NCBI GenBank assembly: GCA_964605495.1 | Contig: CAZSCW010000001.1 | Coordinates: forward strand, 4,843 to 43,931 | Reading direction: 5' to 3' | From: an uncultured Candidatus Saccharibacteria bacterium | GTDB taxonomy: Bacteria; Patescibacteriota; Minisyncoccia; Phycocordibacterales; UBA1006 | DNA: 39,089 nt | In this document: positions 22,416 through 39,089 of the stretch, in pieces | Position numbering within the stretch: the first letter of the stretch is position 1 | Layout of the letters: every line of letters begins with the position of its first letter | Program-made: the position numbers and the translations under genes | The notes under the pieces: generated by a model | The model's database searches: none | Seen by the model: the letters and a program-made list of their open reading frames with translations, nothing else | What the model was told of the DNA's origin: nothing

Positions 22416-23378
22416 TTATTTCCCATGAAATTTCTTATGAACCTCGCGCAATTGTTTGTCAGTCACGTGTGTATAGACTTGGGTCGTTGCAATGTTCGCA
22501 TGGCCGAGCATCATCTGGACTGATCGAATGTCAGCGCCATTGGAAAGTAAATCAGTTGCAAAACTATGGCGTAGAACATGCGGTGTTACGCGCTTTGAAA
22601 TTCCCGCAACAGTCGCGTAATGTTTTACAATACGTTCGATGGATCGTGGAGTCAGTCGCATATCAGCAGATGATTTTGCAGATACGTTTACGAACATTGG
22701 TTCGGCAAAATCCTTGCGGACACTTAAATATTTTTTTATTGCATCACGCGCGCGATCTGAAATAAATACCACACGAACCTTATCACCTTTTCCTCGAATT
22801 GAAAATTCATCTTTACTTAAATCTAATCCTCGGTTCAGGGAACATAATTCTGACAGACGAAGTCCAGTAGAAAAAAATAATTCAAGTAATGCACGATCGC
22901 GGTAACGAACAATATTTTTTTCATCTTGTTTTTTTTCAGATTTTGGATTTGTTAAATTTTGCATCATTGGCGCCTTTAAAAATCTTTTTAGTTCATCACC
23001 TGACAACGGATCAATATCACGTGATCCAGTTTTGGCCAGTTCAATAGCATCTGGGGTCAGTGCCTCGATCCCACGTTTTCTCAAATATTTTAAAAACGAA
23101 CGCAGTGCAATCAGATAATAATTTTGCGTCGCCTTTTTCATAGTTCCTTGTGATTGGCCTTTTACTTTCACACCCTTGGAACGATTCAGGTGTAATCTGA
23201 ACTCTCTTAAAATATTTTCATTAATATCTGAAACATGTTGAATTTTCCCAAACTCAAAAAAAACATCCAAATAATGTTCGTAGTTACGAACAGTGTTTAA
23301 CGCACGTCCACGTTCGATTTCAACATATTCTAAAAATTGTCTTTTGAGATCTGTAATAGTCATATTGTTTTTTTTCAT
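22416..23378 (-). CDS. tyrosine recombinase XerC/XerD-like
   Basis: N-terminal SAM-like domain and catalytic HVLRHSFATDLLSNGADIRSVQMMLGHANIATTQVYTHV. The start could be 23378 or 23363. Confidence 0.9.
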   Translation of the reverse strand: MKKNNMTITDLKRQFLEYVEIERGRALNTVRNYEHYLDVFFEFGKIQHVSDINENILREFRLHLNRSKGVKVKGQSQGTMKKATQNYYLIALRSFLKYLRKRGIEALTPDAIELAKTGSRDIDPLSGDELKRFLKAPMMQNLTNPKSEKKQDEKNIVRYRDRALLELFFSTGLRLSELCSLNRGLDLSKDEFSIRGKGDKVRVVFISDRARDAIKKYLSVRKDFAEPMFVNVSAKSSADMRLTPRSIERIVKHYATVAGISKRVTPHVLRHSFATDLLSNGADIRSVQMMLGHANIATTQVYTHVTDKQLREVHKKFHGK

Positions 23379-23407
23379 TATATCACAATTTGGCATGCTA
23401 AAAATTT

Positions 23408-27940: not shown

Positions 27941-28011
27941 TGCGGCGTAAGGGAATCGAACCCTTATCTACTGCTTGGAAGGCAGTCATTCTACCACTAA
28001 ACTAACACCGC
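27941..28011 (-). tRNA. tRNA-Gly(TCC)
   Basis: The reverse complement folds as acceptor GCGGTGT/ACGCCGC, anticodon arm ACTGC-CTTCCAA-GCAGT, T-arm AAGGG-TTCGATT-CCCTT. No encoded CCA. Confidence 0.9.
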
Positions 28012-28063
28012 AATAAGGCTATCATAACAGATTATATATTTTTATCAAGTAGTTTTTTGCATG

Positions 28064-28161
28064 TAAAAACCCCTACCAAAGTAGGGGTTCCGGCTAACCA
28101 GGCCGTCTCTATAAAAAAAGATTTCTATCAGGAGTATAGAATAATCAATTAAATAGGTCAA
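28064..28161 (-). ncRNA. candidate minus-strand sRNA unit
   Basis: Minus-strand TTGACC(28161-28156)-17 nt-TATACT(28138-28133), then ~55 nt, then the hairpin AACCCCTAC/GTAGGGGTT (28068-28089) with a short U tail. Confidence 0.3.
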
Positions 28162-28172
28162 TATAGTAACAT

Positions 28173-28199
28173 AAAACCACCGGTCTCGACGGTGGTTTT
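28173..28199 (-). terminator. terminator after the HU gene
   Basis: AAAACCACCG gtctcga CGGTGGTTTT. Confidence 0.7.
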
Positions 28200-28207
28200 A
28201 TAAAAGA

Positions 28208-28480
28208 CTATTTAACTGCGTCTTTGAAAGCTTTAGCAGCTCGGAATTTTGGAACCGTAGTTGCAGCAACTTTTACTTGTTCTCCAGTTTTTGGATTGCG
28301 CGCCATTCGTGCAGGGCGAGCTTTTGCAGAGAAGATTCCAAGTCCAGCCAATGATACTTCTTCACCTTTTTTCAAAGTTGAAATGATAGCATCAATAATT
28401 GATTGTACTACTTCTTCTGATTGAACTTTTGTTCCACCAATTTTTTCGTGGATCATTTCTGCAAGTGCTTGTTTATTCAT
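28208..28480 (-). CDS. hup: HU-family DNA-binding protein
   Basis: MNKQALAEMIHEKIGG...GLGIFSAKARPARMARNPKTGEQVKVAATTVPKFRAAKAFKDAV. Start at 28480. Confidence 0.9.
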   Translation of the reverse strand: MNKQALAEMIHEKIGGTKVQSEEVVQSIIDAIISTLKKGEEVSLAGLGIFSAKARPARMARNPKTGEQVKVAATTVPKFRAAKAFKDAVK

Positions 28481-28692
28481 AGGGCTAAAAGAGTGAATCG
28501 CTATCAATGCATTGATAGGCAATTCGATTACATAATAATGCTCTAGAGCCTCTGAAAATCCTATTTGAGTAGAATTTTCGAAAGACCCTTATAGTATAGG
28601 TTATTTTCCATATATAAGGAAATATTGACAAATTCTATTAAATAATTATAATTTTACAGGAAAATCGATTCATTCATTAAAAACAAACAGAT

Positions 28693-29112
28693 ATGTTAGC
28701 ATCTATCAGATCAAAAATTCCCTTTTTAAAAAGTAAAAAGCTTCCCAAAGAAGACAAGAACTTAAAACCAGAAACAAAAGTAATCTCAATGAGAATACTT
28801 AACAAAGACCGAAATGTTGAAATTCTAAAGGATAAAATTTCATTTGAAATAGAAAACGATAAAAATTCACCCAAAAATGAATTATCGTTATTCTACAATA
28901 TCCTTTTGAAAGAACAAAAGAAAGATTTTGAAAAAGGTGATATAAAATTAGTTGAATCGTTTAATATCATACCTAATAAAGAAAAAACTGCCAAAGTTGA
29001 CATCACTATCACTAATAAAAGTTTTACAAAAATTAAAACAGATCATGACATTAGGGAATTGTTGAGTAAAATTTTGGTAATAAAAACAAGGTTCGAACAT
29101 GGAAAGCACTAA
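28693..29112 (+). CDS. hypothetical K-rich protein
   Basis: 139-aa ORF behind TTGACA(28625)-16 nt-TATAAT. Confidence 0.5.
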   Translation: MLASIRSKIPFLKSKKLPKEDKNLKPETKVISMRILNKDRNVEILKDKISFEIENDKNSPKNELSLFYNILLKEQKKDFEKGDIKLVESFNIIPNKEKTAKVDITITNKSFTKIKTDHDIRELLSKILVIKTRFEHGKH

Positions 29113-29242
29113 GCCAAGAAAACAATCTGACTGGGATCGCAAGAAAAAACCTGTCAAAAAAGTTGAAGAAAAACCAAAAAACCCTCATCACAAGGGCAGA
29201 AAACAGAAATACGTGCGACATTTAAATCTCCGCAAAAAATAA
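29099..29242 (+). CDS. possible 47-aa very basic small protein
   Basis: Hand-translated MESTKPRKQSDWDRKKKPVKKVEEKPKNPHHKGRKQKYVRHLNLRKK*. Its ATG overlaps the end of the preceding ORF. Followed by a terminator at 29253-29288. Confidence 0.25.
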   Translation: MESTKPRKQSDWDRKKKPVKKVEEKPKNPHHKGRKQKYVRHLNLRKK

Positions 29243-29306
29243 CATATATAGTAACAACCTAATCCACGGATTAGGTTGTTTTATTTTTGTGATATAATAA
29301 TCAAGT

Positions 29307-29522
29307 ATGGCATTTAACCCTAACAAACCACCTAAAAAAACAAATGGAAAAGAAATTATTGGAACTATTGATTTGAATAGTGCTGAAATGCGCAAGGAAA
29401 CTCCACAACAACGCGCAGAACGGGCTCGACTTGAAAAAGAAAATGGAGTAAAAGCGAACGTGTATAAGGATCGTACAAAATACGATCGAAATACCAAGCA
29501 TAAGAAAAATAAATTTGATTAA
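29307..29522 (+). CDS. hypothetical basic 71-aa protein
   Basis: ORF with its own TATAAT and terminators on both sides (29253-29288, 29521-29545). Confidence 0.5.
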   Translation: MAFNPNKPPKKTNGKEIIGTIDLNSAEMRKETPQQRAERARLEKENGVKANVYKDRTKYDRNTKHKKNKFD

Positions 29523-29570
29523 AAACCACGTTTTACGTGGTTTTTGTTTTTATGATATAATCAACATATT

Positions 29571-30335
29571 ATGCAAGAGCGAATCAAAAAATTTCTCCAG
29601 GATATTGGCCTTTCTGAAAAAGAGGCAGCCGTGTATCTGTCGTTACTATCAGTAGACAGTGCATCTGTAATTGAACTTTCAAAATCAACTGATATCAATC
29701 GAACAACATTATATCCAATTTTGGACGATTTGATTGCAAAAAAACTCGTTGTTGAGATAAAGCACGATAAAAAGGTTCGTTTTCAAGCAGAACCACCAGA
29801 ACGCATTGAAACATATGTTCAAAATCGAAAAAATCAGTTAGAGGAACAGGAAAAAGTGTTAGAGGATATTATTCCACAAATGCGTGGGTTTTCACGACAA
29901 ACAGGCGAAAAGCCGATTGTTAAAATATACGAAGGTCACGATGGAATATTGGATGCCATGAGTGATTATTATGAATTTTTAGGTAAAGATCAGGATGCAT
30001 ATTTAGTGTATTCACGAGATCTTATTGAATCTGCATTTTCAAAAAAGGAATTGGAACAAATAAAACAGAAGCGTTTAGGTAAAAATATTCCAGCAAGTGC
30101 AATTTATACGAAGAGCGATGGAGACTATACAACAGAATTGTCACCAAATCAGTTGCGAGTTGATGCTGAAAAATATCCAATTTTGGCAGATATTGCTGTG
30201 CTAGGTGACAGGGTTCGATTCATTACATTAAAACGAAATCTATCTGCTATTTTAATTAAGAACCAGGATATTGCTGAAACATTACAAAGCTTGATTAAAT
30301 TGGTATTAGATTCGCAAAATAATAACCGCACATAA
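29571..30335 (+). CDS. TrmB-like winged-helix transcriptional regulator (paralog 1)
   Basis: N-terminal LQDIGLSEKEAAVYLSLLSVDSASVIELSKSTDINRTTLYPILDDLIAKKLV, TrmB-type wHTH. ~170-aa C-domain. Confidence 0.8.
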   Translation: MQERIKKFLQDIGLSEKEAAVYLSLLSVDSASVIELSKSTDINRTTLYPILDDLIAKKLVVEIKHDKKVRFQAEPPERIETYVQNRKNQLEEQEKVLEDIIPQMRGFSRQTGEKPIVKIYEGHDGILDAMSDYYEFLGKDQDAYLVYSRDLIESAFSKKELEQIKQKRLGKNIPASAIYTKSDGDYTTELSPNQLRVDAEKYPILADIAVLGDRVRFITLKRNLSAILIKNQDIAETLQSLIKLVLDSQNNNRT

Positions 30336-30352
30336 AAGTGCGGTTATAGTGT

Positions 30353-30659
30353 GGAAAAGTTCTCGATAGCAAATAAATATATTAAATACATGATTTGTTT
30401 TTGCTTTTCGATCGTAATGGTGATTAACCCCTTGGGTTGGTGTGAAGGCGCTGGTACATATTGCTATGCCAGTTTTCTGAGGCCTTCACACCGGACGCGG
30501 TTAATGGTCCATAAGTAGATCTGTTCTAAAGAATTTACGTCAACTCAAGTTGTTTTTACGTTGAGCTGGTTGTTGTCATCTTTTTCTAATCAGAAACCTG
30601 ATTAGAAGTAATGACTTTTCCGAACGTTTGATGATCTACCGAGAACTTTCTCGTTTTTT
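30353..30659 (+). ncRNA. candidate ~300-nt structured RNA
   Basis: - No ORF.
- 30353-30369 pairs with 30636-30652 (14 WC + 1 GU of 17).
- Internal perfect stems are GGTGTGAAGGC/GCCTTCACACC (30439-49 / 30482-92) and TTCTAATCAG-aaac-CTGATTAGAA (30584-30607).
- T6 at 30654-59. Confidence 0.4.
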
Positions 30660-30930
30660 GGTTGCTTAGTGTCCCATTTTTCATTGTTAATTTTTAAAGA
30701 ATTGATTTACCTACCAAGTATAGCAGATTCTAAAAATATGTCAAGCTTTTTGCAAAAATAGTCTATCTTTTTCGTCAGGGTAGGCTTTTTTGTAATAATT
30801 TTAATTTTTTCCATTAAATATTTTTATAGAAATATGTCAAATTTTAGTATATTTTGTCTATTTAAAACAACAAAATATCCTTTATTTATAATGATTAATA
30901 TAGTTATCCACAGTTTTATGTCGAAATGAT

Positions 30931-30959
30931 TTGACAAAATATAATGAATCTGCTATACT
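30931..30959 (+). promoter_or_regulatory. strong sigma70-type promoter firing into the noncoding rsr leader
   Basis: TTGACA-17 nt-TATACT. A perfect DnaA box TTATCCACA sits at 30904-30912 just upstream. Confidence 0.6.
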
Positions 30960-31181
30960 GCAATTAAGAACGTGAGATACAGTCATGTTCAATACCGCGA
31001 GATACATAAAAACTGTTTAATTCTTTAGACAGACTCTTGAAACCAAGTCCACTTGATATCAGCCATATGGTTGGTATCTGGAATAGTTGGAATCAGGTAC
31101 GTCACCGAATGACGTTAAATGTCGGCGCAATCATATGCGATATTGAATAATTCTTTTACAAAAAAATAAAACTATATAACT

Positions 31182-31349
31182 ATGCCAAAAACACCGAAAG
31201 ATATCTGGAAATTAACAGTTGCCCTACTGGACCAAAACGGCTTTACCACTCGTGGTGAAAAGAAAAAAGACGCACAGAAGAAAAAGAAGCAATTCTTTTT
31301 TGAAAAGCGATTACTTACTAATCCGGTTGGGAATGGAAAACACCGTTAA
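31182..31349 (+). CDS. possible 55-aa basic small protein in the leader
   Basis: Hand-translated MPKTPKDIWKLTVALLDQNGFTTRGEKKKDAQKKKKQFFFEKRLLTNPVGNGKHR*. No clear RBS. Confidence 0.25.
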   Translation: MPKTPKDIWKLTVALLDQNGFTTRGEKKKDAQKKKKQFFFEKRLLTNPVGNGKHR

Positions 31350-31399
31350 GTTACCATCTGTCTCTCTTGCAGGTTTTGGCGTAGCCAAAGAGAATGTTC

Positions 31400-31474
31400 A
31401 TAATCGTAACTGATTATGATCTTTATCCAGATTATGAAGCAATTCATAGTTTGGTAGAGATGTTCTTTCAAAAA
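31400..31474 (+). ncRNA. A-type RNA module, copy A1 (variant)
   Basis: Small hairpin ATAATC/GATTAT, then CTTTATCCAGATTATGAAG-caat-TCATAGTTTGGTAGAG, then tail ATGTTCTTTCAAAA. Confidence 0.5.
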
Positions 31475-31547
31475 TCTTGAAAGGAATATCCCCAGCATCA
31501 TTTATAAAACGGAGATGGTGTTTGGAATATTCCTTTCGAGGAGAAAA
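31475..31547 (+). ncRNA. C-type RNA module, copy C1
   Basis: TCTTGAAAGGAATATCC ... GGAATATTCCTTTCGAGGAGAAAA, a ~16-bp stem. Confidence 0.5.
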
Positions 31548-31811
31548 ACAATAGGCTGGTGTCAGGACCACAACATCTCTGAATTTACATTCGAACTAAA
31601 TCGGATATAAATGTGGGATTGTTTGCAGAAATATTAAAAAATAATTCTTTGATAAGAGAAAGTAGGAAGATGCAAGAGCTTAGTCATTTCGACTATGTAT
31701 CGTCTATCCTATGATCCGCCTTTCTGATCAAAAGGTTTCAAATTTCTTGGCAGGGTATTACAACTATATCCTTATCTATAAGCATGACGATGTGAAATGG
31801 TAAAATTTTTC

Positions 31812-31921
31812 GGGAAATTGTTTTGCAATCGAGCAAAACAATTTCCCTTCTTATCAGGATCATAACTAATACAAAAAGTTATGGTTCTGTAGGAAGTAAT
31901 GGTCCTACTGTTCTTTTAAAA
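31812..31921 (+). ncRNA. A-type RNA module, copy A2
   Basis: Perfect 15-bp hairpin GGGAAATTGTTTTGC/GCAAAACAATTTCCC, then TTCTTATCAGGATCATAA-13 nt-TTATGGTTCTGTAGGAAG, then tail ...CTGTTCTTTTAAAA. Confidence 0.55.
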
Positions 31922-32692
31922 ATTGTTCACCAAACCGTTCTGCTTCTCAACCTGTGTTGTCGCGCAGGGCCATTATCCGTAAGGATATGGCGTTCCCTTG
32001 GATCTACTTGTCGCTGACTATTATTTCCCGGCTTGGAAATGATGGAAGACTACCTATCCGAGGTTACTTCGCAAATCTAACAAATAAAATTATGTTTTAC
32101 TGTTGGTGGATTCTCAATTCTCGACCAGAGGATTGTAGGGTTTACCAACGCAAACCGAGAAGCAGAGGGTGTGACTACCTGGGGCGGTTACCCAAACAGT
32201 CCAAGCGTTAGCAATCTTGATTATTATTTTCTTTATCATGCATTCCCATCAACCAGGAAGCCAATGTTTCAAAAAGAAACGTTGGCTTCTATCATCGGGA
32301 ATGATATGTTAGGAAAATAATTTTCAAGTCGTTTGGAATGATCATGTGCGCAGTGATTGTTCGAACCAAAGGTTGGTACTCCTTTGGAAGTTGTTAGGAT
32401 GATTCAGGAAATTCTTCTAGAGCTATTCAATGGTCTGGCCGGACTATTGATAGACGTGAAGGGTTTCCTGACATCCGAAATGTCCCGGCACTATGTCAGG
32501 ACAGTTACCTTATTCGCCTCTTGTCGCTTGATCTTTGATTTCTATACCAATAGAGAGAAAAGAAACGACTGCAGAATTAGGTTACTTCGCAGAAAAGTCT
32601 TTTTATTTCGGCGGGGATCCTGTTCCGTACAGACGATACCGCCAGGCCTTGGGATTGAACATAATGTTCAATCCCTTCTTATCAGGATCATA
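31879..32692 (+). ncRNA. ~0.8-kb ORF-poor, highly structured segment between modules A2 and A3
   Basis: Multiple long stems:
- 32244-32300: CATTCCC...GGAAGCCAATGTTTC-aaaaa-GAAACGTTGGCTTC...GGGAATG
- CCTGACAT/ATGTCAGG at 32467-32499
- long-range TCTGCTTCTC (31939-48) pairing with GAGAAGCAGA (32156-65). Confidence 0.4.
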
Positions 32693-32728
32693 AAGTAATT
32701 TGTGATTCTGTAGGAATTTGTTCTTTGA
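32651..32728 (+). ncRNA. A-type RNA module, copy A3 (immediately upstream of rsr)
   Basis: GGGATTGAAC-ataat-GTTCAATCCC, then TTCTTATCAGGATCATAA-loop-TGTGATTCTGTAGGAA, then tail TTTGTTCTTTGA. Confidence 0.55.
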
Positions 32729-32758
32729 TTTTAAAATAATTCTGTTGCTGACGATTTG

Positions 32759-32813
32759 TTTATTTGGTGAAAAAGGGGGTTAAATCACATGTGACTCTCT
32801 TTCACCAAATAAA
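32759..32813 (+). promoter_or_regulatory. perfect 14-bp hairpin ending 9 nt before the rsr ATG
   Basis: TTTATTTGGTGAAA (32759-72) pairs with TTTCACCAAATAAA (32800-13). The 27-nt loop contains AAGGGGG. Confidence 0.5.
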
Positions 32814-32822
32814 ATTTCGTCT

Positions 32823-34427
32823 ATGACTACTATACATACTATTACCGCTGCTTTTGCTGGAAGATCTACAGAATCATCTCATGTTAATCATGCAGGTGGT
32901 ACATCTTTCAGAAGATCCTTGTGGGAACAACTCCTACAAGTACTCAGCACGAATACCTTGAGTGATACATTTTATGTGAAGAAGGAGCAGCTTGCTTCGG
33001 AAACCATAGATGTGATCATGGAGGCTCGTGAAAAAGATCACCGTTTCCTCGCACAAGCAATTGTGTGGGCGCGTAGAGATGGTTTAATGAAATTGGTTCC
33101 GACACTTGCTCTCGCGATTCTTTCTGGAAAGAAAGGTATCGAGCCGCAATTGTTTTTGAACACGTTTCAGCAAACAATCTTGACGCCGGATGATCTCCGC
33201 ACATTCGTTTCAATCATCAAGTCTGGTGTAGTGCCAGGCAGAAGAGGAATTGGTGGAGTGGTGCGCGATGCTGTTCGTACTTGGATGGGTGGTATTTCCG
33301 AATATCATGCTGTTAAGTACGGCTCGGTTAATTCCGATGGAGTTACACTCCGCGACATCTTGCGCCTGACTCACCCGAAACCATCTTCTGATGTGTTGAA
33401 CGAGCGTTTTGGATGGCTTGCAGGTTCGCGCAAGGGAGACCTTACGTTGAATCCGCAGATTTTGTCATTGGAAAAATTGAAGCGTGCAACAACCGAAGAA
33501 GAGATAGTTCAATTGGTTCGCCAAGGAAGACTACCCTACGAGGTTGTGGTGCCGTCAGTTCCGAAGATGACAAAGGCTGTGTGGGCCGAGCTGTTACGAC
33601 AAGCTCCGTACATGAACCTACTTCGAAACTTACGTTCGTTCCGCGAACATGGAGTTTTTGAAGACCAGGCAAATGTCGAGTACGTTGTTGGCAGACTCAC
33701 CGATCCGCGTGCGGTTGAGGCAAGTCGAGTATTACCATTCCGCTTTTTTGATGCGTTAAAAGCTTTCACATTCACCTCTGCACCCGACATGCAGATACGT
33801 GATGCGATAGCGAGCGGGCTTGAATTGTCATTTGTGAATCTTCCGAATTTCGGTTCGGAGACACATGTGACAATTGGTTCAGATGTCAGTGGTTCAATGT
33901 CATCTTATTCAATCTCTGAAAAGAGCGAGACTAAGTGCATTGATATCTGTGGTGTCTTTACCGGAGCTCTCTTAAAACGTAGCGAAAATGTACTTACACT
34001 TCCATTCGAGGGACATGTTGTACATTTGCCACTTTCAAAGCACGACAGCATCGCTGAAACGGCTCGAAAGATTGCAAGTGTGCGAGGTGGTTCCACAGCG
34101 GTTGGTGCACCAATACAATACCTGCTTGATCGTAAGATTAAGACAGATGTATTCATTGGTATCACTGACAACGAGGATTGGGCATATGGATCAGGACACG
34201 CAGTGTCAGGTAAATTTTACGACTTGTGGTTACGCTACAAGAAGGAAATTAACCCAAATGCGAAAGCATTTCTGGTAACCATTCTCCCATACCGCGACGC
34301 TGTAGCCCCTGAGGGCTCGGATGTTCATTTCATCTACGGATGGAGTGAGAAGGTATTGAATTATATTGCTTTGAAAATATCTACAGGCGCGAGTCAGGTA
34401 GATAAGATCAGAACGATAGAAGTTTGA
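32823..34427 (+). CDS. rsr: Ro60-related protein Rsr (TROVE domain + vWA domain)
   Basis: 534 aa. N-terminal NHAGGTSF...LSDTFY and ...AQAIVWARRDGLMKLVPTLALAIL match the TROVE pattern of Ro60/Rsr. The C-terminal vWA has the MIDAS motif DVSGSM. Visibly higher G+C than its neighbours. Confidence 0.85.
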   Translation: MTTIHTITAAFAGRSTESSHVNHAGGTSFRRSLWEQLLQVLSTNTLSDTFYVKKEQLASETIDVIMEAREKDHRFLAQAIVWARRDGLMKLVPTLALAILSGKKGIEPQLFLNTFQQTILTPDDLRTFVSIIKSGVVPGRRGIGGVVRDAVRTWMGGISEYHAVKYGSVNSDGVTLRDILRLTHPKPSSDVLNERFGWLAGSRKGDLTLNPQILSLEKLKRATTEEEIVQLVRQGRLPYEVVVPSVPKMTKAVWAELLRQAPYMNLLRNLRSFREHGVFEDQANVEYVVGRLTDPRAVEASRVLPFRFFDALKAFTFTSAPDMQIRDAIASGLELSFVNLPNFGSETHVTIGSDVSGSMSSYSISEKSETKCIDICGVFTGALLKRSENVLTLPFEGHVVHLPLSKHDSIAETARKIASVRGGSTAVGAPIQYLLDRKIKTDVFIGITDNEDWAYGSGHAVSGKFYDLWLRYKKEINPNAKAFLVTILPYRDAVAPEGSDVHFIYGWSEKVLNYIALKISTGASQVDKIRTIEV

Positions 34428-34728
34428 TATCTTTGAAGGGATGTTGATATTTGGCGATCGGACCGGTTTCACACTGCTTACTACTACCGATAGCAAGGTA
34501 GCGTACAAGTATTTTTTCAAACGGAAAAAATGCGGAGCAGCCGGTTGGCAACAGAAAGTACCTTGCTTGCGAGGGAAAAAGTGAAGAAGGTATCAGATTC
34601 CGCCTTTTAAAATAATTGGAATCACTATATAGACTATTTCGTCATGTTTGCGAAAGCACATGAATATCCTCGCCTTGGTGGAAAACGAAAAGGTGAAATA
34701 GTCAGCGGTTACCAGAAATGGATCCGCA

Positions 34729-34779
34729 CCTGTCCTGAAATGTATATTTCAGCTGATGAGTCCAACAGGACGAAACAGG
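34729..34779 (+). ncRNA. type III hammerhead ribozyme HHR-1
   Basis: CCUGU-C(cut after 34734)-[CUGAAAU guau AUUUCAG]-CUGAUGA-[GUCC aaca GGAC]-GAA-ACAGG. All core nucleotides are present, with a GUC cleavage triplet and stem III open. Confidence 0.9.
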
Positions 34780-34798
34780 AATTGATATCGTGAATTAC

Positions 34799-34837
34799 AA
34801 CAAAACCGCTTGATTGCGGTTTTGTTGTTTCTTTTTC
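34799..34837 (+). terminator. intrinsic terminator right after HHR-1
   Basis: AACAAAACCGC ttgatt... GCGGTTTTGTT followed by a T-rich tail. Confidence 0.65.
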
Positions 34838-34858
34838 TACTCGTGCTATAATTTTGTT

Positions 34859-35407
34859 ATGAAAAGTATTAATACCATTAAAAATACAATAAAACATCAT
34901 CAATCAACCATTACTAAAATAATAATGGTTGTAGTAGTAATTGGATCAGCTTTTGCAGTACATCATGTAATGGCAGCTGATATTCCTGCAGCACCAAATC
35001 CTGCAAAATTGGTAAATGATAATGCAGGAATGTTGAGCGCTGAGCAAATTTCAACACTCGAGAAAAAATTACGAGCATATAATGATTCGACAACTAATCA
35101 AATAGTAATTGTAACAGTGCCAAGTATTGGAATGTACGCAATTGATGATTATGCAAACCGATTAGCAAATCAATGGGGAATTGGAGTTAGCGGAAAAGAT
35201 AATGGAATTTTGGTATTAGTTGCAAAAGGTGAAAAACAAATTGATATTGAAGTTGGTACACGCATGGATGCATCTGTAACTGATATTGATGCAAAACGAG
35301 TTATTGATCAACAAATGGTTCCAGCGTTCAGTAAAAAGGATTACTATGGAGGACTGACAGCGGCAGTTGATAAGTTAATTGCAACTATTACAGCACATCC
35401 TTTATAA
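34859..35407 (+). CDS. TPM-domain (YgcG-like) protein
   Basis: Signal/TM, then VNDNAGMLSAEQISTLEKKLRAYNDSTTNQIVIVTV...GILVLVAKGEKQIDIEVG. Start at MKSINT (34859), behind TATAAT at 34845. Confidence 0.85.
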   Translation: MKSINTIKNTIKHHQSTITKIIMVVVVIGSAFAVHHVMAADIPAAPNPAKLVNDNAGMLSAEQISTLEKKLRAYNDSTTNQIVIVTVPSIGMYAIDDYANRLANQWGIGVSGKDNGILVLVAKGEKQIDIEVGTRMDASVTDIDAKRVIDQQMVPAFSKKDYYGGLTAAVDKLIATITAHPL

Positions 35408-35410
35408 ATA

Positions 35411-35443
35411 AAAACACCTCATTCCGCAGAATGAGGTGTTTTT
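35411..35443. terminator. bidirectional terminator
   Basis: CACCTCATTC cgca GAATGAGGTG with A/T runs. Confidence 0.7.
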
Positions 35444-36218
35444 ATTTTGCCTGTATCCACAGTGTTTCAAAAATCATTTTCGCAAATTCGTAAATAGATT
35501 TATTGGTGATTACAATAGAATGTAATCCCTGATCCCAAATAGTAAATGTCACGTGATTTTTCCAGATAGAACAATGCAAATTCGGATTGAGTATTTTTTT
35601 TGAAATAATTCGTGTATCACGCAGTTTTAATCGTGATTCTTTTAGTTCGTCTTTTGCCATAGGGGATTCGGTAATAATGTTTCGTGCTGTAATACCTTTT
35701 TTCCGGCGAGCTTTACCATACCCATGCAGACGATCCTTTGCAACAGTAAATTTCTCAACTTCACCAGAAATACGTAACACTTCTCCATTTTTATCTTGAT
35801 CAAGTGACCTAAAAAACAAATCAATAAAACCGTCTTCACCTTCCAAGTGTTCTACATCTATTTGTTCAGTTTCGCCACGTAATGCAAAAAACGTACGAAG
35901 TTCTGGAAAAACAGATTCTAATGACTCCATTTTTTGTGTTGCAATTATTTTTTCATACTCTACAAAGTTTTTTATTTTTTCAGGTTTTTCAATATACATC
36001 ATGCGCCGCTTACCAAGTTTGGTTACACCCAAAACTTTTCTCTCAAGGAGGTTTTCAGTAGCTACATGTACCGTCGAACGGGGAAGTTTCACCCCAGATG
36101 CAATATCTGCAATAGTCGAAAGTCCAGATTTAAACAAGTAAAAAATAACCTGCTGTTCGGCCATGTCCAACCCAATAGTTTTTAATGCTGTTTTAATATC
36201 TTTTGGTATTTCAATCAT
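35442..36218 (-). CDS. TrmB-like winged-helix transcriptional regulator (paralog 2)
   Basis: LKTIGLDMAEQQVIFYLFKSGLSTIADIASGVKLPRSTVHVATENLLERKVL. Same length and architecture as 29571..30335. Confidence 0.8.
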   Translation of the reverse strand: MIEIPKDIKTALKTIGLDMAEQQVIFYLFKSGLSTIADIASGVKLPRSTVHVATENLLERKVLGVTKLGKRRMMYIEKPEKIKNFVEYEKIIATQKMESLESVFPELRTFFALRGETEQIDVEHLEGEDGFIDLFFRSLDQDKNGEVLRISGEVEKFTVAKDRLHGYGKARRKKGITARNIITESPMAKDELKESRLKLRDTRIISKKILNPNLHCSIWKNHVTFTIWDQGLHSIVITNKSIYEFAKMIFETLWIQAK

Positions 36219-36342
36219 GATTACAGTGTAGCATATATGTTTAAAATGACCAATTTTTATGACACTTTTAAAATATAATACTAATTTATAAAGGATATAT
36301 TCAAAATAATAATTAAAGTATTAGTATTTAGTGTCATTTTAC

Positions 36343-36371
36343 TTGACTTTTCATGTATACCATGCTATACT
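36343..36371 (+). promoter_or_regulatory. sigma70-type promoter firing into noncoding modules
   Basis: TTGACT-17 nt-TATACT. An inverted repeat ATGACAC..ATACTAAT / ATTAGTAT..GTGTCAT (36259-36337) abuts the -35. Confidence 0.55.
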
Positions 36372-36434
36372 GGTTGTAGAAAGATGAGATAAGAAAAACA
36401 TCTTTCATAAAAATTGTTCATTAAAAAACAACAT

Positions 36435-36572
36435 ATGAAAAGAATAAGAGAGTTTTTTGAAAATTTTAGTGATGATCACCCATTCATCACAGCAATAATG
36501 GTATTAGCTGTTATTGTTTATGTATGTCACTGGTTAGGTGTGCATACATCCTTGTCTGGCATTGACAGATAA
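36435..36572 (+). CDS. possible 45-aa hydrophobic peptide
   Basis: Hand-translated MKRIREFFENFSDDHPFITAIMVLAVIVYVCHWLGVHTSLSGIDR*. One TM-like stretch. No clear RBS. Confidence 0.3.
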   Translation: MKRIREFFENFSDDHPFITAIMVLAVIVYVCHWLGVHTSLSGIDR

Positions 36573-36586
36573 ATGCAAAGGAAAAT

Positions 36587-36665
36587 GGACGAGCCTTTAT
36601 AAAATCGTCCACATTATTCAGCTCACGAATTTCGCGAGTTGATAGTGTAACAATGTTCTTTGAAA
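36587..36665 (+). ncRNA. B-type RNA module, copy B1
   Basis: GGACGA-12 nt-TCGTCC, then CATTATTCAG-CTCACGAatttCGCGAG-TTGATAGTG, then tail AATGTTCTTTGAAA. Confidence 0.5.
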
Positions 36666-36668
36666 TAA

Positions 36669-36730
36669 TCTCGAAAGGAATATTCTGCATATCAGAATAT
36701 GATGAATAGAATATTCCTTTCGAGGAGAAA
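36669..36730 (+). ncRNA. C-type RNA module, copy C2
   Basis: TCTCGAAAGGAATATTC ... GAATATTCCTTTCGAGGAGAAA. Confidence 0.5.
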
Positions 36731-36844
36731 GCACTTCTTGTTTTGGTTGTTGAACAGGAAAGTAGAGACCTGCTCTCTCATGACACAACAACCAGCCTCG
36801 TATAGTTTGATGGAACTATGCTGTGGCGTATTTGCTCCATCATA

Positions 36845-36928
36845 GGGAAGTGTATAAGCAGAAACACTTCCCTTTCTTATCAGGATCATAAAACAATTTG
36901 TGGTTCTGTAGGGAAATGTTCTTTGAAA
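36845..36928 (+). ncRNA. A-type RNA module, copy A4
   Basis: GGGAAGTGT-10 nt-ACACTTCCC, then TTTCTTATCAGGATCATAA-loop-TGTGGTTCTGTAGGGAA, then tail ATGTTCTTTGAAAAG. Confidence 0.55.
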
Positions 36929-36931
36929 AGA

Positions 36932-36981
36932 TTTAATTGGTTACCTAAGTTTCTTACCAGAAATTTAGGTAACCAATTAAA
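36932..36981 (+). promoter_or_regulatory. perfect 17-bp hairpin ending 9 nt before the lipoprotein ATG
   Basis: TTTAATTGGTTACCTAA (36932-48) pairs with TTAGGTAACCAATTAAA (36965-81). 16-nt loop. Confidence 0.5.
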
Positions 36982-36990
36982 TTAAGAGAT

Positions 36991-37305
36991 ATGAAAAAGA
37001 TAAGTATTATCGCATTAGGATTCATAATGTTTTTGACTTCTTGTAAAAACGAAACCTATTACCAAGGTAAGGGTGTAGTTATTGAAGAAGACAGAACATA
37101 CTTTGGGGGTGTGCAAGTGAAAGTATCAGTTGATACTGCAGGAGATGGTAACCAGATTTGGTTCTGGGCATCTCCTGCAGGTTTTGCTGATAGCTATCAC
37201 CGCTATTCTCAAGGTGACACCGTAGACGTTGAATACATGGCATTCAATAGTTGGGTCAGTCCTGTGACGGAAAAGTCCAAACAAGACAGCGCTGAAGTAC
37301 AGTAA
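36991..37305 (+). CDS. small lipoprotein, hypothetical
   Basis: MKKISIIALGFIMFLTSC has an LTSC lipobox. 104 aa. Confidence 0.7.
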   Translation: MKKISIIALGFIMFLTSCKNETYYQGKGVVIEEDRTYFGGVQVKVSVDTAGDGNQIWFWASPAGFADSYHRYSQGDTVDVEYMAFNSWVSPVTEKSKQDSAEVQ

Positions 37306-37377
37306 GCATGTCGCTGGCTAAGGTGCAAAACACCTTACACTCTTGTCTGAAAGAGGTAAAACTTCAGGAAGGAGAAC

Positions 37378-37455
37378 GGGCAAGCCTATATAAAATTGCC
37401 CTCATTATTCAACTCACGAATTTCGTGAGTTGATAGTGTAAGTAGTTCTTTAAAA
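37378..37455 (+). ncRNA. B-type RNA module, copy B2
   Basis: GGGCAA-12 nt-TTGCCC, then CATTATTCAA-CTCACGAatttCGTGAG-TTGATAGTG, then tail TAGTTCTTTAAAA. The first stem is fully compensated relative to B1. Confidence 0.5.
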
Positions 37456-37679
37456 TGACAAATATTTTTTATGGAAGGTTTTATAGAATATCCCCAGTAT
37501 TGTATAGTTTTGGTATAACGCTGTACAAACTCGCTTATGATTCGGCACTATCCGACTCAATGATTGGCACCTGCATATGCCAAAGGAATTGGTTGATTTA
37601 CCAAATACCAATTTCAAAACTAGTAGGTTGATTATTCGTATGGGATTACGAACCTGTCTCTAGAAGATAAATGATCAAC

Positions 37680-37766
37680 GGAGAAACAAATGCCTTGGGA
37701 AATGTTTCTCCTCTTTATCCAATCCATGAAGTAATTCGTGGATTGGTAGAGAAAATGTTCGTTACA
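37680..37766 (+). ncRNA. A-type RNA module, copy A5 (variant)
   Basis: GGAGAAACA-14 nt-TGTTTCTCC, then TCTTTATCCAATCCATGAAG-taat-TCGTGGATTGGTAGAG, then tail AAAATGTTCGTTACAAAA. Confidence 0.5.
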
Positions 37767-37848
37767 AAAATATTTTCCAATCTATTAAATTCAGAAGATA
37801 ATAACTCTTAAATATTTTGGGTAAATTAACCAAATTTTTAAGTTAAGT

Positions 37849-38055
37849 ATGGAAAGATTAGATGTTTATATAGAGATAGGTGATCATTATTACTCTGGTC
37901 TCTATAAAAATTGCCCTGTAATATCTTCTGGTGATGACTGGGCTATTGTATATGTCGAGGTTGGCGATCATTATTACTCGGGAGAGTATAGAGTTCTGCT
38001 TTATGGTGATCGCTGGATGACTACAGACTACTATGGTTATCATTACGATGGGTGA
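37849..38055 (+). CDS. hypothetical 68-aa protein with an internal duplication
   Basis: VYIEIGDHYYSGLY and VYVEVGDHYYSGEY repeats; Y/G/D-rich. Confidence 0.5.
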   Translation: MERLDVYIEIGDHYYSGLYKNCPVISSGDDWAIVYVEVGDHYYSGEYRVLLYGDRWMTTDYYGYHYDG

Positions 38056-38178
38056 ACCCTCTCGCTCTAGAGGTATTGTCGTTAGACATGAGAGGTGCGT
38101 TTTGTCCCCGTCTTGCCGAAAAGATGGAGAGCCTCGAGGAAGCAGAGCCTCACGAGTGATTGCATCTTGCATCCTCGT

Positions 38179-38230
38179 TCTGTCCTAGAATGTATTATTC
38201 TAGCTGATGAGTCCAAAAGGACGAAACAGA
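38179..38230 (+). ncRNA. type III hammerhead ribozyme HHR-2
   Basis: UCUGU-C(cut after 38184)-[CUAGAAU guauu AUUCUAG]-CUGAUGA-[GUCC aaaa GGAC]-GAA-ACAGA. Stems I and III differ from HHR-1 only by compensatory pairs. Confidence 0.9.
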
Positions 38231-38268
38231 TTCTTTTACAAATTTCATAAACAAAAAAAACAGATAGC

Positions 38269-38568
38269 ATGGAAAAGAAATATTATCACTTAGAAAACCT
38301 TGATAAAATCATCACTAAAAAAATCGAGAGTGAACCACAACCACAAATGCAGTCACAGTCACATCTACCGCCAAACTGTATAGACTGTAAGCATCATCGT
38401 GTACTTCCTGACCCAGATCCCGATGATTGGTTCTGTGATGACGATGAAAAAGTTTTGTGTACCCTTGCGAAAAAATTAGTGACAGTCGCATGCAGGCCGC
38501 ACCACAAGCGAAAAGAATGCACGGTTCCGTCATGGTGCCCACTGCTGCAAGCAAACCAAACCGTATAA
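38269..38568 (+). CDS. hypothetical Cys-rich 99-aa protein
   Basis: Eight Cys (CIDC...FCDDDEKVLC...ACRPHHKRKEC...WC). Starts 39 nt after HHR-2. Confidence 0.55.
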   Translation: MEKKYYHLENLDKIITKKIESEPQPQMQSQSHLPPNCIDCKHHRVLPDPDPDDWFCDDDEKVLCTLAKKLVTVACRPHHKRKECTVPSWCPLLQANQTV

Positions 38569-38604
38569 AAGTATCATTATTTTTTCACCCTTAAAATAAT
38601 AACA

Positions 38605-38928
38605 ATGGACAATAAAAAATGTCTTTTCAAATATGATGATTTTCTCAAAAATCACATTAATGAGACAATGAGCCCCGAGATCACTGAGTTGTTTCGCAAC
38701 TATGCCTGGCAAGCACCACATGCATTTCTTGCGCTCAAGCGTATAGATCGCATCGCTCAAATAGGTACTGCATCAGGAGAAGTACTAAAACAACTTCTCG
38801 TTGATATGCAGGAAAAGTTCAAACGTGCCGGCATTGCAAGAAACGAGGTCGCGAAGATTAAACAGGTATTGTTTGATAGATATCCTGATATCCAGAGGAA
38901 AATCAAACAAACCCCTGTATCGCGATAG
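38605..38928 (+). CDS. hypothetical 107-aa protein
   Basis: ATG ORF 37 nt after the previous stop, followed by a terminator at 38939-38963 (AGAACAGG aaatc CCTGTTCT TTTT). Confidence 0.55.
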   Translation: MDNKKCLFKYDDFLKNHINETMSPEITELFRNYAWQAPHAFLALKRIDRIAQIGTASGEVLKQLLVDMQEKFKRAGIARNEVAKIKQVLFDRYPDIQRKIKQTPVSR

Positions 38929-38996
38929 TAGTTTTCACAGAACAGGAAATCCCTGTTCTTTTTATTCAATTTAATCTATAATTAGAAAATAATTCT

Positions 38997-39089
38997 ATGA
39001 AAGAACAATTAATTATAAAACGCGAAAGCAAACAAGAAAATCGAGAAAGTTTTTTAAAGCGATTGGAAGGGAAATTTACACCAGAACAA
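38997..39089 (+). CDS. hypothetical protein, first 31 codons (runs off the right edge)
   Basis: ATG at 38997. MKEQLIIKRESKQENRESFLKRLEGKFTPEQ stays open to the window end. Confidence 0.4.
   Translation, partial: MKEQLIIKRESKQENRESFLKRLEGKFTPEQ

Follow-up and report, generated by a model that had tools for sequence, protein, structure and literature searches.

The rsr gene in a 39,089-nucleotide stretch of DNA from an uncultured Candidatus Saccharibacteria bacterium (contig CAZSCW010000001.1; the whole stretch is called the window) is surrounded by structured non-coding RNA modules that are encoded on its own strand. The region is built from two parts, the rsr locus and a neighboring array of small-gene cassettes, each of which is located beside the gene of a TrmBL2-like regulator. 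Three kinds of RNA modules recur in it: the E-domain, which was found only in rsr loci, the stem-bulge unit, which also occurs in arrays where the retrieved DNA has no rsr, and type III hammerheads, which replace stem-bulge units at the same site. In the composite reading, to which we give a probability of roughly 0.45, these modules would belong to long precursor RNAs that are cut by hammerheads and host endonucleases, the remaining structures would cap the ends of the pieces, and the E-domain would be the Y-RNA-like partner of the Ro60 ortholog Rsr. An earlier interpretation of the letters alone (the sequence-only reading) had already described rsr as embedded in structured RNA and the region as an accessory island; both descriptions hold, and the content of the island varies between relatives. 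Related loci retrieved for comparison are referred to by L-numbers, and all statements on distribution are limited to that retrieved DNA.

The rsr-specific element is the E-domain, which the sequence-only reading had not singled out and which was noticed when the gaps between trmB and rsr were compared. It is a three-helix RNA that ends in ...GAGG-WUACUUC. The consensus of helix P1 is CCUU[RR]NN / NNYY[GR]AGG, the joining sequence J1 is U-rich and about 7 nt long, and P2 is formed by GYCC / GGRC. J2 reads NUUGAC, P3 is variable, UG(C/U)C follows P2', and the WUACUUC after P1' is invariant. The window harbors two copies:

31995–32073, plus strand: E-domain copy a, with P1 CCUUGGAU/AUCCGAGG, P2 GUC/GAC, a variable P3 and the 3' sequence UUACUUCG (covariance model R3, 71.5 bits).
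32508–32591, plus strand: E-domain copy b, with P1 CCUUAUUC/GAAUUAGG and P2 GUCG/CGAC (covariance model R3, 72.3 bits).

Covariance model R3 returned 25 hits at E ≤ 1 in 259 kb, all of them on the plus strand and in rsr loci, and ten hits outside the training set reach E < 0.002. No E-domain hit was obtained in 11 module loci without rsr from the Candidate Phyla Radiation (CPR), nor elsewhere in the window. The element is found with confidence in 14 of 16 CPR rsr loci. A strict regular expression gave the same distribution, with 16 hits in 209 kb of rsr loci, none in 60 kb of other CPR loci and one in 1.37 Mb of unrelated DNA. Compensatory changes occur in 9 of 12 pairs. At the variable P1 positions, 14 copies carry 12 different sequences that are 84% paired, compared to 60% in shuffles (0 of 5000 reach this value). 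The P1 alignment was lost by MAFFT, and the register was therefore taken from a hand table and a covariance-model realignment. E-domains are located 240–760 nt upstream of rsr, or 250–870 nt downstream of it in L001, L002, L198, and L203, always on the rsr strand. Two copies per locus are present in many genomes, and L002 carries E-domains on both sides of rsr. With downstream copies in these four loci, the E-domain cannot be just an element of the leader.

The genes of bacterial Y RNAs lie on the rsr strand at no more than 4 kb from rsr, and a recognizable YrlA is missing from many bacteria that encode Ro60 (PMC4201824). The E-domain occupies such a position and is the best candidate for a Y-RNA-like partner of Rsr. 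The 1-nt-spacer form of the YrlA motif, GNCGAANG, has no match in the non-coding RNA of 30.35–38.23 kb (the 0-nt-spacer form was not searched); its two matches in that range (36073 and 36115) are placed inside the coding region of the regulator TrmB2, and the window as a whole has 4 matches versus 8.4 expected. Neither Rfam nor ARAGORN detected tRNA-like elements with T and D arms in the island. The Rfam Y_RNA model (RF00019) gave no hit at E ≤ 10 in 30200–38600, at E ≤ 1 in L004, L005, and L007, or at E ≤ 0.01 in L197–L203. The search with all 4227 models of Rfam 15 (ROOL, GOLLD, OLE, HEARO, raiA, twister, pistol, hatchet, and others) covered the window and 18 related loci with gathering thresholds and permissive E-values. 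It returned only tRNAs, sub-threshold hammerheads, and a hit similar to transfer-messenger RNA (tmRNA) in L007, and no module was matched, which rules out known RNA families as the identity of the modules. The statement that they match neither Y RNA or YrlA nor another known family stands. A full-text literature search found no paper that ties Rsr/Ro60 to CPR bacteria, to hammerheads, or to RNAs of this kind. Rsr with adjacent non-coding RNA and hammerheads are each known already; the E-domain, the stem-bulge unit, their modular arrangement, and the exchange of hammerhead for hairpin are undescribed as far as Rfam 15 and the literature were searched.

The stem-bulge unit starts with a variable hairpin 1, on which a hairpin 2 of about 20 bp is stacked; 2–6 nt further on follows a single-stranded GUUCUUUNAAA tail. 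Hairpin 2 is composed of a 6–7-bp lower stem (YYWUUAU / AUAGWGR), one bulged U or C, a conserved CAG/YUG step, and a 9–12-bp upper stem. The sequence-only reading had counted three families of covarying hairpins. The compensatory pairing is confirmed, with the difference that its families A and B are a single family, as all seven window copies match one covariance model, trained on 11 copies, and all are on the plus strand:

31399–31474, plus strand: unit A1, with hairpin 1, bulged hairpin 2, and the tail GUUCUUUCAAAAA (RNAfold; covariance model R1, 64.2 bits).
31812–31924, plus strand: unit A2, with an extra small hairpin before the tail (outside the training set; R1 27.2 bits, E = 0.001).
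32651–32732, plus strand: unit A3, the last one before rsr, about 90 nt upstream of its start (RNAfold and covariance model).
36577–36666, plus strand: unit B1, with the 5' flank AAAGGAAAAU and a conserved GCCUUUAUAAAA loop in hairpin 1 (RNAfold and covariance model).
36844–36929, plus strand: unit A4 (RNAfold and covariance model).
37369–37456, plus strand: unit B2, for which an outer helix GGAGAAC/GUUCUUU is possible (RNAfold and covariance model).
37680–37769, plus strand: unit A5, with the tail variant GUUCGUU (RNAfold; covariance model, 75.1 bits).

Units are absent from the remaining 30 kb of the window, where the only other hit is weak (20.6 bits). In an alignment of 39 units, 94.5% of the cells are paired and both sides have changed in 12 of 16 pairs. 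The covariation score is 0.624, compared to 0.25 in shuffles (0 of 500 reach 0.624) and 0.07–0.12 in slid controls. Several positions are conserved G·U wobbles, which indicates that the structure is selected on the RNA-sense (plus) strand.

Further copies were detected by the covariance model in related loci, always on the rsr strand. Seven loci that had been retrieved independently via Rsr homologs added 21 hits at E < 0.01, each of them co-oriented with rsr. A metagenome scan by primary-sequence pattern yielded 68 loci, 12 of which pass the covariance model. A relaxed-pattern scan of IMG/VR gave, among the matches listed, no viral locus that passes the model (0 of 80; 663 kb); these pattern matches are due to chance, and a viral origin of the units was rejected. 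The position of the unit is fixed relative to the reading frames. Hairpin 1 begins just past the upstream stop codon, and the next ATG follows 7–25 nt beyond the tail, or 45–90 nt where an extra long hairpin intervenes. A unit lies about 60–180 nt upstream of rsr in the window, L001, L002, L003, L005, L006, and L008, and this slot holds either a unit or a hammerhead in the loci examined. Stem-bulge arrays also occur where the retrieved DNA (up to 13 kb) has no rsr (L038, L040/L047, L072), and L202 and L203 have rsr and E-domains and no units. A TrmB-like gene is located beside the arrays of L038, L040, and L047; none was found by tblastn for the array of L072.

Two other identities or features of the unit were considered and dropped. 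Intrinsic terminators are ruled out by the AU-rich stems and by the serial copies inside operon-like arrays. An outer helix between tail and 5' flank, which would create a three-way junction, is present in A1 and B2, imperfect in B1-type units, and absent in A3, A4, and A5, and is not a family feature. B-type units (window 36577–36610; L002, L019, L048, L072) have in common the 5' flank AAAGGAAAAC and a conserved hairpin-1 loop of 12–14 nt, GCCUAUAUAAAAU. Flank and loop could pair over 3–5 bp (AGG/CCU), which makes this a pseudoknot candidate.

The two hammerheads of the sequence-only reading are confirmed, with complete cores, covariation, and scores below the Rfam gathering score of 48.5 bits:

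34727–34781, plus strand: hammerhead 1, type III, predicted cleavage after C34734 (40.6 bits, E = 3e-6), preceded by a small hairpin at 34705–34727.
38177–38232, plus strand: hammerhead 2, type III, predicted cleavage after C38184 (42.8 bits, E = 7e-7), followed by the tail variant AUUCUUUUACAAA and the next open reading frame (ORF).

Both contain the core GUC / CUGAUGAG / CGAAAC, which is invariant in nine related copies. In nine hammerheads (the two of the window and seven from related loci), 97% of the cells are paired, compensatory changes are present in 12 of 16 pairs, and the covariation score is 0.70 versus 0.23 in shuffles. Helices I and II are closed and helix III is open. The order [hairpin][hammerhead][GUUCUUU-like tail] is also found in L004, L019/L208, L198, and L200.

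The strongest clue to function is the replacement of one module by the other at the same site. L197 is collinear with window positions 28001–34839 at 84–88% identity. At the exact site where the window has [small hairpin][hammerhead 1], L197 has [hairpin 1][bulged hairpin 2] between flanks of 84% identity, and both are then followed by ATATCGTGAATTACAA and the terminator. A self-cleaving ribozyme can thus substitute for the bulged hairpin in its role, which argues that the shared function is cleavage or end formation rather than the binding of one protein.

The Rsr assignment and its surroundings rest on the following features:

32823–34427, plus strand: rsr, Ro60 ortholog with TROVE and vWA domains (Pfam, PDB, and NCBIfam matches).
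32750–32821, plus strand: stable hairpin abutting the rsr start codon (folding z = -7.45).
34445–34726, plus strand: structured rsr 3' region, which includes element D at 34539–34585 (folding).

The call of a TROVE + vWA gene of the Ro60/Rsr type made by the sequence-only reading is verified by HMM search (TROVE PF05731, 7e-14; vWA_Ro60 PF25045, 2e-14). Matches to Ro60 and Rsr in the PDB range from 5e-21 to 9e-18, and residues ~16–465 align to human/Xenopus Ro60 and to D. radiodurans Rsr. The NCBIfam Rsr equivalog cut-off is not reached (88 bits versus 900 required; E = 4e-25), and by sequence the window Rsr is a divergent family member and not an equivalog of proteobacterial Rsr. At E ≤ 1e-40, 362 homologs were found, the few named ones being metagenome-assembled genomes (MAGs) of CPR/Parcubacteria type or labeled "60 kDa SS-A/Ro". 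The nearest relatives are from Candidatus Paceibacterota MAGs (73–74% identity), and remoter ones are labeled Saccharibacteria, Doudnabacteria, Zambryskibacteria, Falkowbacteria, and Parcubacteria. These relationships place the window in a CPR/Patescibacteria genome, that of a Paceibacteria-like bacterium.

The sequence immediately before rsr is arranged as [unit or hammerhead][tail][stable hairpin][start codon]. The counterpart of this hairpin in L005, L006, and L008 sequesters the Shine-Dalgarno (SD) sequence GGAGAA by pairing it with an upstream UUUCUCC stretch (hairpins at 5930–5991, 5870–5940, and 5880–5946, respectively; the window rsr has no recognizable SD), and this pairing suggests a translational gating of rsr in these three loci. 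Element D downstream of rsr comprises 47 nt that are 100% identical in L019 and L208, where they occur in another context before a hammerhead. Just past the rsr stop, L007 (7680–7830) and L203 (5700–5880), two distant loci, have the short stretches GUCUGACUGCG and AAAAGACCGAA in common, which hints at another conserved 3' RNA element. In L007, a Doudnabacteria MAG, a hammerhead (8109–8161) is located directly 3' of rsr and is followed after 8 nt by a 131-nt RNA (span 8109–8300). It exceeds the gathering score of the Rfam tmRNA model (56.9 bits) through its match to the tRNA-like ends, has about 70 nt in place of the mRNA/pseudoknot region, and is not called by ARAGORN. Two possibilities are a tmRNA of miniature size and, in analogy to YrlA, a tRNA-like Y RNA.

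The sequence-only reading also connected rsr with the RNA ligase RtcB. This link was dropped, as no RtcB-family gene is among the called genes of eight loci; none was found among the window ORFs of suitable size that were scanned (ORFs at 20.7–25.5 kb were not scanned).

In total, the rsr region contains about 4 kb of non-coding DNA. Over 30353–38230 the coding share is 47.7% and the non-coding share about 52%, so that the label "RNA-dominated" was too strong for an island of which about half is coding and several small ORFs (55, 45, 104, and 68 aa) are conserved. The ORF statement for 30353–32822 was reproduced exactly: the minus strand has no ORF of at least 60 aa (the longest are 51 and 57 aa), and the plus strand has four (64, 64, 85, and 113 aa). 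The conservation of one 55-aa ORF as a protein shows that this part is not purely RNA. The claimed rise in G+C applies to rsr (0.457) and its 3' region (0.416), which are clearly above the background of 0.345 ± 0.025 with no 1-kb window above 0.405. It fails as a general statement: the leader (0.36–0.38) and the second array (0.371) are only modestly raised. For rsr, the contrast is genuine. Compared to shuffled sequence, folding of the non-coding half is far more stable (z = -9.4 for 31925–32660, z = -5 to -12 for single hairpins), and the plus strand always gives the more stable fold. Gaps between trmB and rsr measure 1.0–2.6 kb in 16 assessable loci and contain at most one short ORF (38–134 aa). 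In nine loci with gaps of 1.2–2.6 kb, the z-scores of 300-nt windows are mostly -3 to -12, compared to ~0 to -2.5 in coding controls.

Promoters, terminators, and regulators frame the two arrays:

29571–30335, plus strand: TrmB1, a TrmB-family (TrmBL2-like) DNA-binding regulator (Pfam TrmB, 1e-11).
30348–30930, no strand assigned: structured spacer with a divergent pair of promoter-like sites (folding; promoter-like site at 30744 on the minus strand).
30931–30959, plus strand: promoter P1, TTGACA-17-TGcTATACT, TG-extended, 11/12, upstream of the ~1.86-kb rsr leader.
34797–34828, plus strand: predicted intrinsic terminator closing the rsr transcription unit.
35442–36218, minus strand: TrmB2, a second TrmB-like regulator, divergent from array 2 (Pfam TrmB, 6.6e-5).
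36343–36371, plus strand: promoter P2, TTGACT-17-TGcTATACT, TG-extended, 10/12, conserved in L015.

P1 and P2, which the sequence-only reading had named as two strong promoters, are the top-scoring plus-strand sigma-70-type matches of the region, and their blocks are conserved in other loci. Blocks homologous to P1 are found in L001, L002, L004, L005, L006, and L008 and are common to several lineages. Promoter-like sites of the region overall are not above chance (31 versus 26.9 expected). GC-rich classical terminators are located at 34797 and 35410. In the spacer, the minus strand folds with z = -6.95, yet the plus strand is more stable (-101 versus -93 kcal/mol). A leftward TG-extended promoter-like site at 30744 (minus strand; TTGACA-16-TATACT, 11/12) faces a minus-oriented terminator at 30347–30322, and this arrangement suggests an RNA of about 390 nt on the minus strand that would be convergent with trmB1.

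A TrmB-family gene is found beside rsr in all 16 assessable CPR loci. The AlphaFold2 model of TrmB1 (mean confidence pLDDT 87.5) has TrmBL2 as its top full-length PDB match (E = 1.7e-11), a DNA-binding protein with a winged helix-turn-helix, and a role of TrmB1 as nuclease or RNA binder is thereby ruled out. Homologs of TrmB2 adjoin module arrays in L015, L040, L047, and L048.

Comparison of related strains reveals the variability of the island. The very same locus was found in the ENA samples ERZ22307367, ERZ22305348, and ERZ27283041. In L040 and L047, the homolog of window positions 28209–28480 is joined directly to the TrmB2 array, and the rsr-carrying segment of about 7 kb (28481–35455, with trmB1, leader, rsr, hammerhead 1, and the TPM gene) is missing, which identifies it as an insertion or deletion. 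The module island of L072 is located at a different chromosomal site. Where the window (36669–39025) carries C2, A4, a lipoprotein gene, B2, A5, the 68-aa ORF, hammerhead 2, and the 99- and 107-aa ORFs, L208 (9389–10231) carries a 108-aa ORF, a D-like element, a hammerhead, and a 75-aa ORF; the left breakpoint in L208 lies directly after the GUUCUUU tail of unit B1. In L204, the place of a hairpin of about 125 nt between the E-domains is taken by an unrelated one of equal length, while the preceding 11.6 kb are 100% identical. Runs of N in L204 and L205 are scaffold gaps and not deletions, and were disregarded.

Other modules and small ORFs of the island are the following:

31182–31349, plus strand: 55-aa basic small ORF, a cassette inside the leader (blastp: L001 8248–8412, L002 5048–5209; called gene in L197 and L204–L208).
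31476–31540, plus strand: long hairpin C1, then GGAGAAA (z = -5.3; paralog C2).
32218–32341, plus strand: hairpin module between the E-domains (swapped in L204, 11647–11770).
34859–35407, plus strand: gene for a TPM-domain protein (Pfam, 3e-40; found by tblastn in no other rsr locus).
36435–36572, plus strand: conserved 45-aa small membrane-protein ORF (blastp: L019, L040, L047, L002).
36670–36724, plus strand: long hairpin C2 (z = -6.46).
36930–36983, plus strand: 25-bp perfect hairpin abutting the next start codon (z = -11.6; the L002 homolog precedes a different ORF).
36991–37305, plus strand: 104-aa lipoprotein-like cassette ORF (86% identical in L015; missing from strain L208).
37849–38055, plus strand: 68-aa ORF with an internal 84-nt tandem repeat (called gene in L204 and L205).
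38056–38176, plus strand: structured region before hammerhead 2 (stretches of 70–73% identity precede the hammerhead region in L040 and L047).
38269–38928, plus strand: two further small cassette ORFs of 99 and 107 aa (no family match; homolog of the 99-aa ORF in L019 and L208).

Module C is a two-copy family with both copies within the window, and its 18-mer has no exact match in any retrieved locus. The 84-nt tandem duplication in the 68-aa ORF (37863–37982) encodes VY(I/V)E(I/V)GDHYYSG, without a family match. The first ~20 kb scanned hold ordinary genes (KsgA, an M23/LysM peptidase, a ComM-like ATPase, CCA/poly(A) polymerase, and others). The PcrA gene is located at 25.9–27.9 kb, and a tRNA-Gly (27941–28011) stands beside the ~7-kb rsr-carrying segment. 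An ORF for a tyrosine recombinase (22416–23396, minus strand) has Phage_int_SAM_1 and Phage_integrase domains and thus an XerC/D-type make-up; it is located about 6 kb upstream of trmB1 and not adjacent to the arrays. In the Paceibacteria loci L197 (8924–10438), L198 (8255–9605), and L200 (8842–9605), a gene for RNase Y (RNase_Y_N + KH + HD) marks the distal end of the rsr cassette array and is encoded on the other strand; this may be synteny only or a hint to a nuclease that acts on the tail.

In the composite reading, each array is probably transcribed from its strong sigma-70-type promoter as a long, heavily folded precursor RNA, in which stem-bulge units and hammerheads would serve as punctuation between cistrons at the RNA level. 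The hammerhead would cut itself in cis. The unit or its tail would be cut by a host endonuclease, with RNase III as a candidate for the ~20-bp helix and RNase Y for G|UU in the tail. The leftover structures would remain as caps, on the 3' end of the piece before the cut and on the 5' end of the piece after it. These cuts would set free single small mRNAs as well as stable structured RNAs, among them the E-domain RNA, which would assemble with Rsr as its Y-RNA-like partner; the stable hairpin at the start site would additionally gate rsr translation. Several observations weigh against this reading. Units A1, A2, and A3 succeed one another in the window with no ORF between them, and the punctuation of mRNAs can therefore not be their sole role. 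L006 and L008 carry only a divergent version of the E-domain. Where it stands upstream of rsr, the E-domain could instead be a cis-regulatory element. The E-domain has neither the GNCGAAN0-1G motif nor the tRNA-like domain of YrlA nor a match to Rfam Y_RNA; it fails the defining YrlA tests and is for this reason not filed as a Y RNA, though it may work like one. The cassette sets of array 2 differ among strains with identical TrmB1, which could reflect a DNA-level recombination function of the same repeats. Finally, the covariation counts come from alignments that were fitted to the models and are inflated by paralogous copies and sequence relatedness.

The sequence-only reading had left the choice between very divergent Rsr partners and a new cis-acting or processing class of RNA. 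The latter is the better fit for the hairpin modules. The units are not specific to rsr. The idea that the units themselves are Rsr ligands, miniature Y-RNA-like elements that tether Rsr to transcripts for autoregulation, protection, or decay, is unlikely, even with a number of features in its favor. The bulge and the pyrimidine tail of the unit would suit the binding preference of Ro60, whose surface takes up a bulged helix and whose cavity takes up a 3' tail. The helix with its 6–7-bp lower stem, 1-nt bulge on the 5' strand, and conserved UUAU-Y-CAG / YUG-AUAG is like that of metazoan Y RNA, conserved G·U pairs are typical of protein sites, and a unit stands in the slot upstream of rsr in seven loci including the window. 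In addition, the 3' strand of module B (UUGAUAGUG) resembles the Y RNA sequence UUGACUAGYC. Set against this are the many units in arrays where the retrieved DNA lacks rsr, the loci L202 and L203 that combine rsr and E-domains with no units, the missing Y_RNA model hit, and the replacement by a hammerhead at the same site. A quite unlikely reading makes the whole upstream region a cis-acting leader of rsr, with the E-domain as riboswitch-like or autoregulatory sensor and the other modules as attenuators or stability elements. The aptamer-like shape of the E-domain, with two helices that enclose conserved joining sequences, its position upstream of rsr in most loci, and the masking of the rsr start by a stable hairpin, including SD sequestration in three loci, would be explained by it. 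The downstream E-domains of L001, L198, and L203, those on both sides of rsr in L002, the distance of 240–760 nt to the start codon with other modules in between, and the two copies per locus in many genomes would not.

Recombination at the DNA level, in which the units are sites of an integron-like cassette system or of recurrent homologous exchange and RNA folding is secondary, has to be judged at least as improbable as the leader reading. It is suggested by the series of co-oriented [ORF][hairpin][GTTCTTT][ORF] repeats that follow a strong promoter and a divergently oriented regulator, and by cassettes that differ between strains otherwise 99–100% identical, with module-for-module swaps of sharp boundaries and the L208 breakpoint right after the B1 tail. 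Putative HicAB-type cassettes in L038 (recognized by reading translations, with no family search) and the tyrosine recombinase gene 6 kb upstream of trmB1 point in the same direction. However, it is the coding (top) strand that carries the conserved G·U pairs, in contrast to integron attC sites, which fold on their bottom strand. No RYYYAAC...GTTRRRY pair is present at the stem base; the GTT lies 2–6 nt beyond the stem, with pyrimidines after it. None of the arrays has an integrase next to it, the nearby recombinase is of the ordinary XerC/D type, and hammerheads, which act only as RNA, interchange with the units and share their tail. In the boldest reading, the unit is an RNA-cleavage module that is swapped one-for-one with hammerheads, either a self-cleaving ribozyme of a new class or the dedicated target of a nuclease not described so far, and the E-domain a new class of Ro60-bound RNA, which together would form a CPR "cassette punctuation" system; this version is very unlikely. 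Less credible still are selfish or neutral repeats in permissive intergenic DNA without a dedicated function, of the type of miniature inverted-repeat transposable elements (MITEs) or repetitive extragenic palindromes (REPs). Many copies, variable sequences, and variable islands would be expected of such repeats, but dispersal in both orientations was not seen in the window and the retrieved loci: the seven window copies are confined to two arrays and one strand, with none in the other 30 kb, the 21 hits in independent loci are co-oriented, and all confident copies are oriented with the local genes. Compensatory changes, conserved wobbles, and a single-stranded tail conserved across several CPR classes, as well as the fixed position relative to stop and start codons, also speak against them.

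Ro60/Rsr is conserved from bacteria to humans, and its RNA partners are known in only a few bacteria. CPR bacteria (Patescibacteria), whose genomes are minimal, make up a large and mostly uncultured share of bacterial diversity, and an important function is implied by the structured RNA block of 0.5–2.6 kb that several of their classes have kept beside rsr. The E-domain is a concrete, sequence-defined candidate for a new Ro60 partner RNA in these bacteria. As the role of bacterial hammerheads is poorly understood, the exchange between hammerhead and bulged hairpin with a shared tail is an unusually clean natural experiment and a lead to something new, either a ribozyme or a pair of nuclease and substrate. 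RNA modules and small-ORF cassettes that are swapped between strains may represent a new mode of accessory-genome plasticity in CPR bacteria.

Among known systems, those of Rsr and Y RNA (Yrn1 in D. radiodurans; YrlA and YrlB in Salmonella/Mycobacterium) are similar in that structured non-coding RNAs, often in more than one copy, are encoded on the same strand within a few kb of rsr. They differ by the GNCGAAN0-1G motif (searched here in its 1-nt-spacer form), the T/D arms, and the nearby rtcBA, all of which are absent here, and by their regulator RtcR, in place of which a TrmBL2-like protein is found. The RNAs described here, which are candidate partners only, share multi-module leaders of 0.5–2 kb with small ORFs and hammerheads. 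Metazoan Y RNAs and nematode stem-bulge RNAs resemble the unit in their single pyrimidine bulge on the 5' strand and their pyrimidine-rich 3' tail. In addition, one E-domain copy of L007 (5486–5575) reads UGGUCCGA / GGACUACC, close to the Ro-binding GGUCCGA / UGACUAGCC. No homology to metazoan Y RNAs is detectable, and the likeness consists of a few nucleotides that are not kept in all copies.

Integron attC arrays are likewise built from co-oriented small, often orphan ORFs and imperfect hairpins with an extrahelical base and a GTT motif, vary between strains, and have a strong promoter at one end. The arrays of the window differ in their top-strand folding, the absence of R''/R' boxes and of an adjacent integrase, and the interchange with hammerheads. 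The hammerheads themselves correspond to the type III hammerheads (RF00008) of bacterial and phage polycistronic regions, with a full core, an open helix III, a GUC (or GUA, GUU) triplet, and an intergenic position. In contrast to these, they score just below gathering and stand in a fixed [hairpin][hammerhead][GUUCUUU tail] frame, in which they are exchangeable with a bulged hairpin that does not look like a ribozyme; no report of such a frame or interchange was found in the literature searched. The RNase III sites of phage T7 and REP-type mRNA stabilizers are stable, imperfect intercistronic hairpins of about 20 bp, plausible substrates of endonucleases and protectors of 3' ends. The stem-bulge units are alike in this respect and are set apart by their two-hairpin architecture, conserved bulge, wobbles, and single-stranded tail, and by their restriction to accessory arrays instead of a genome-wide distribution.

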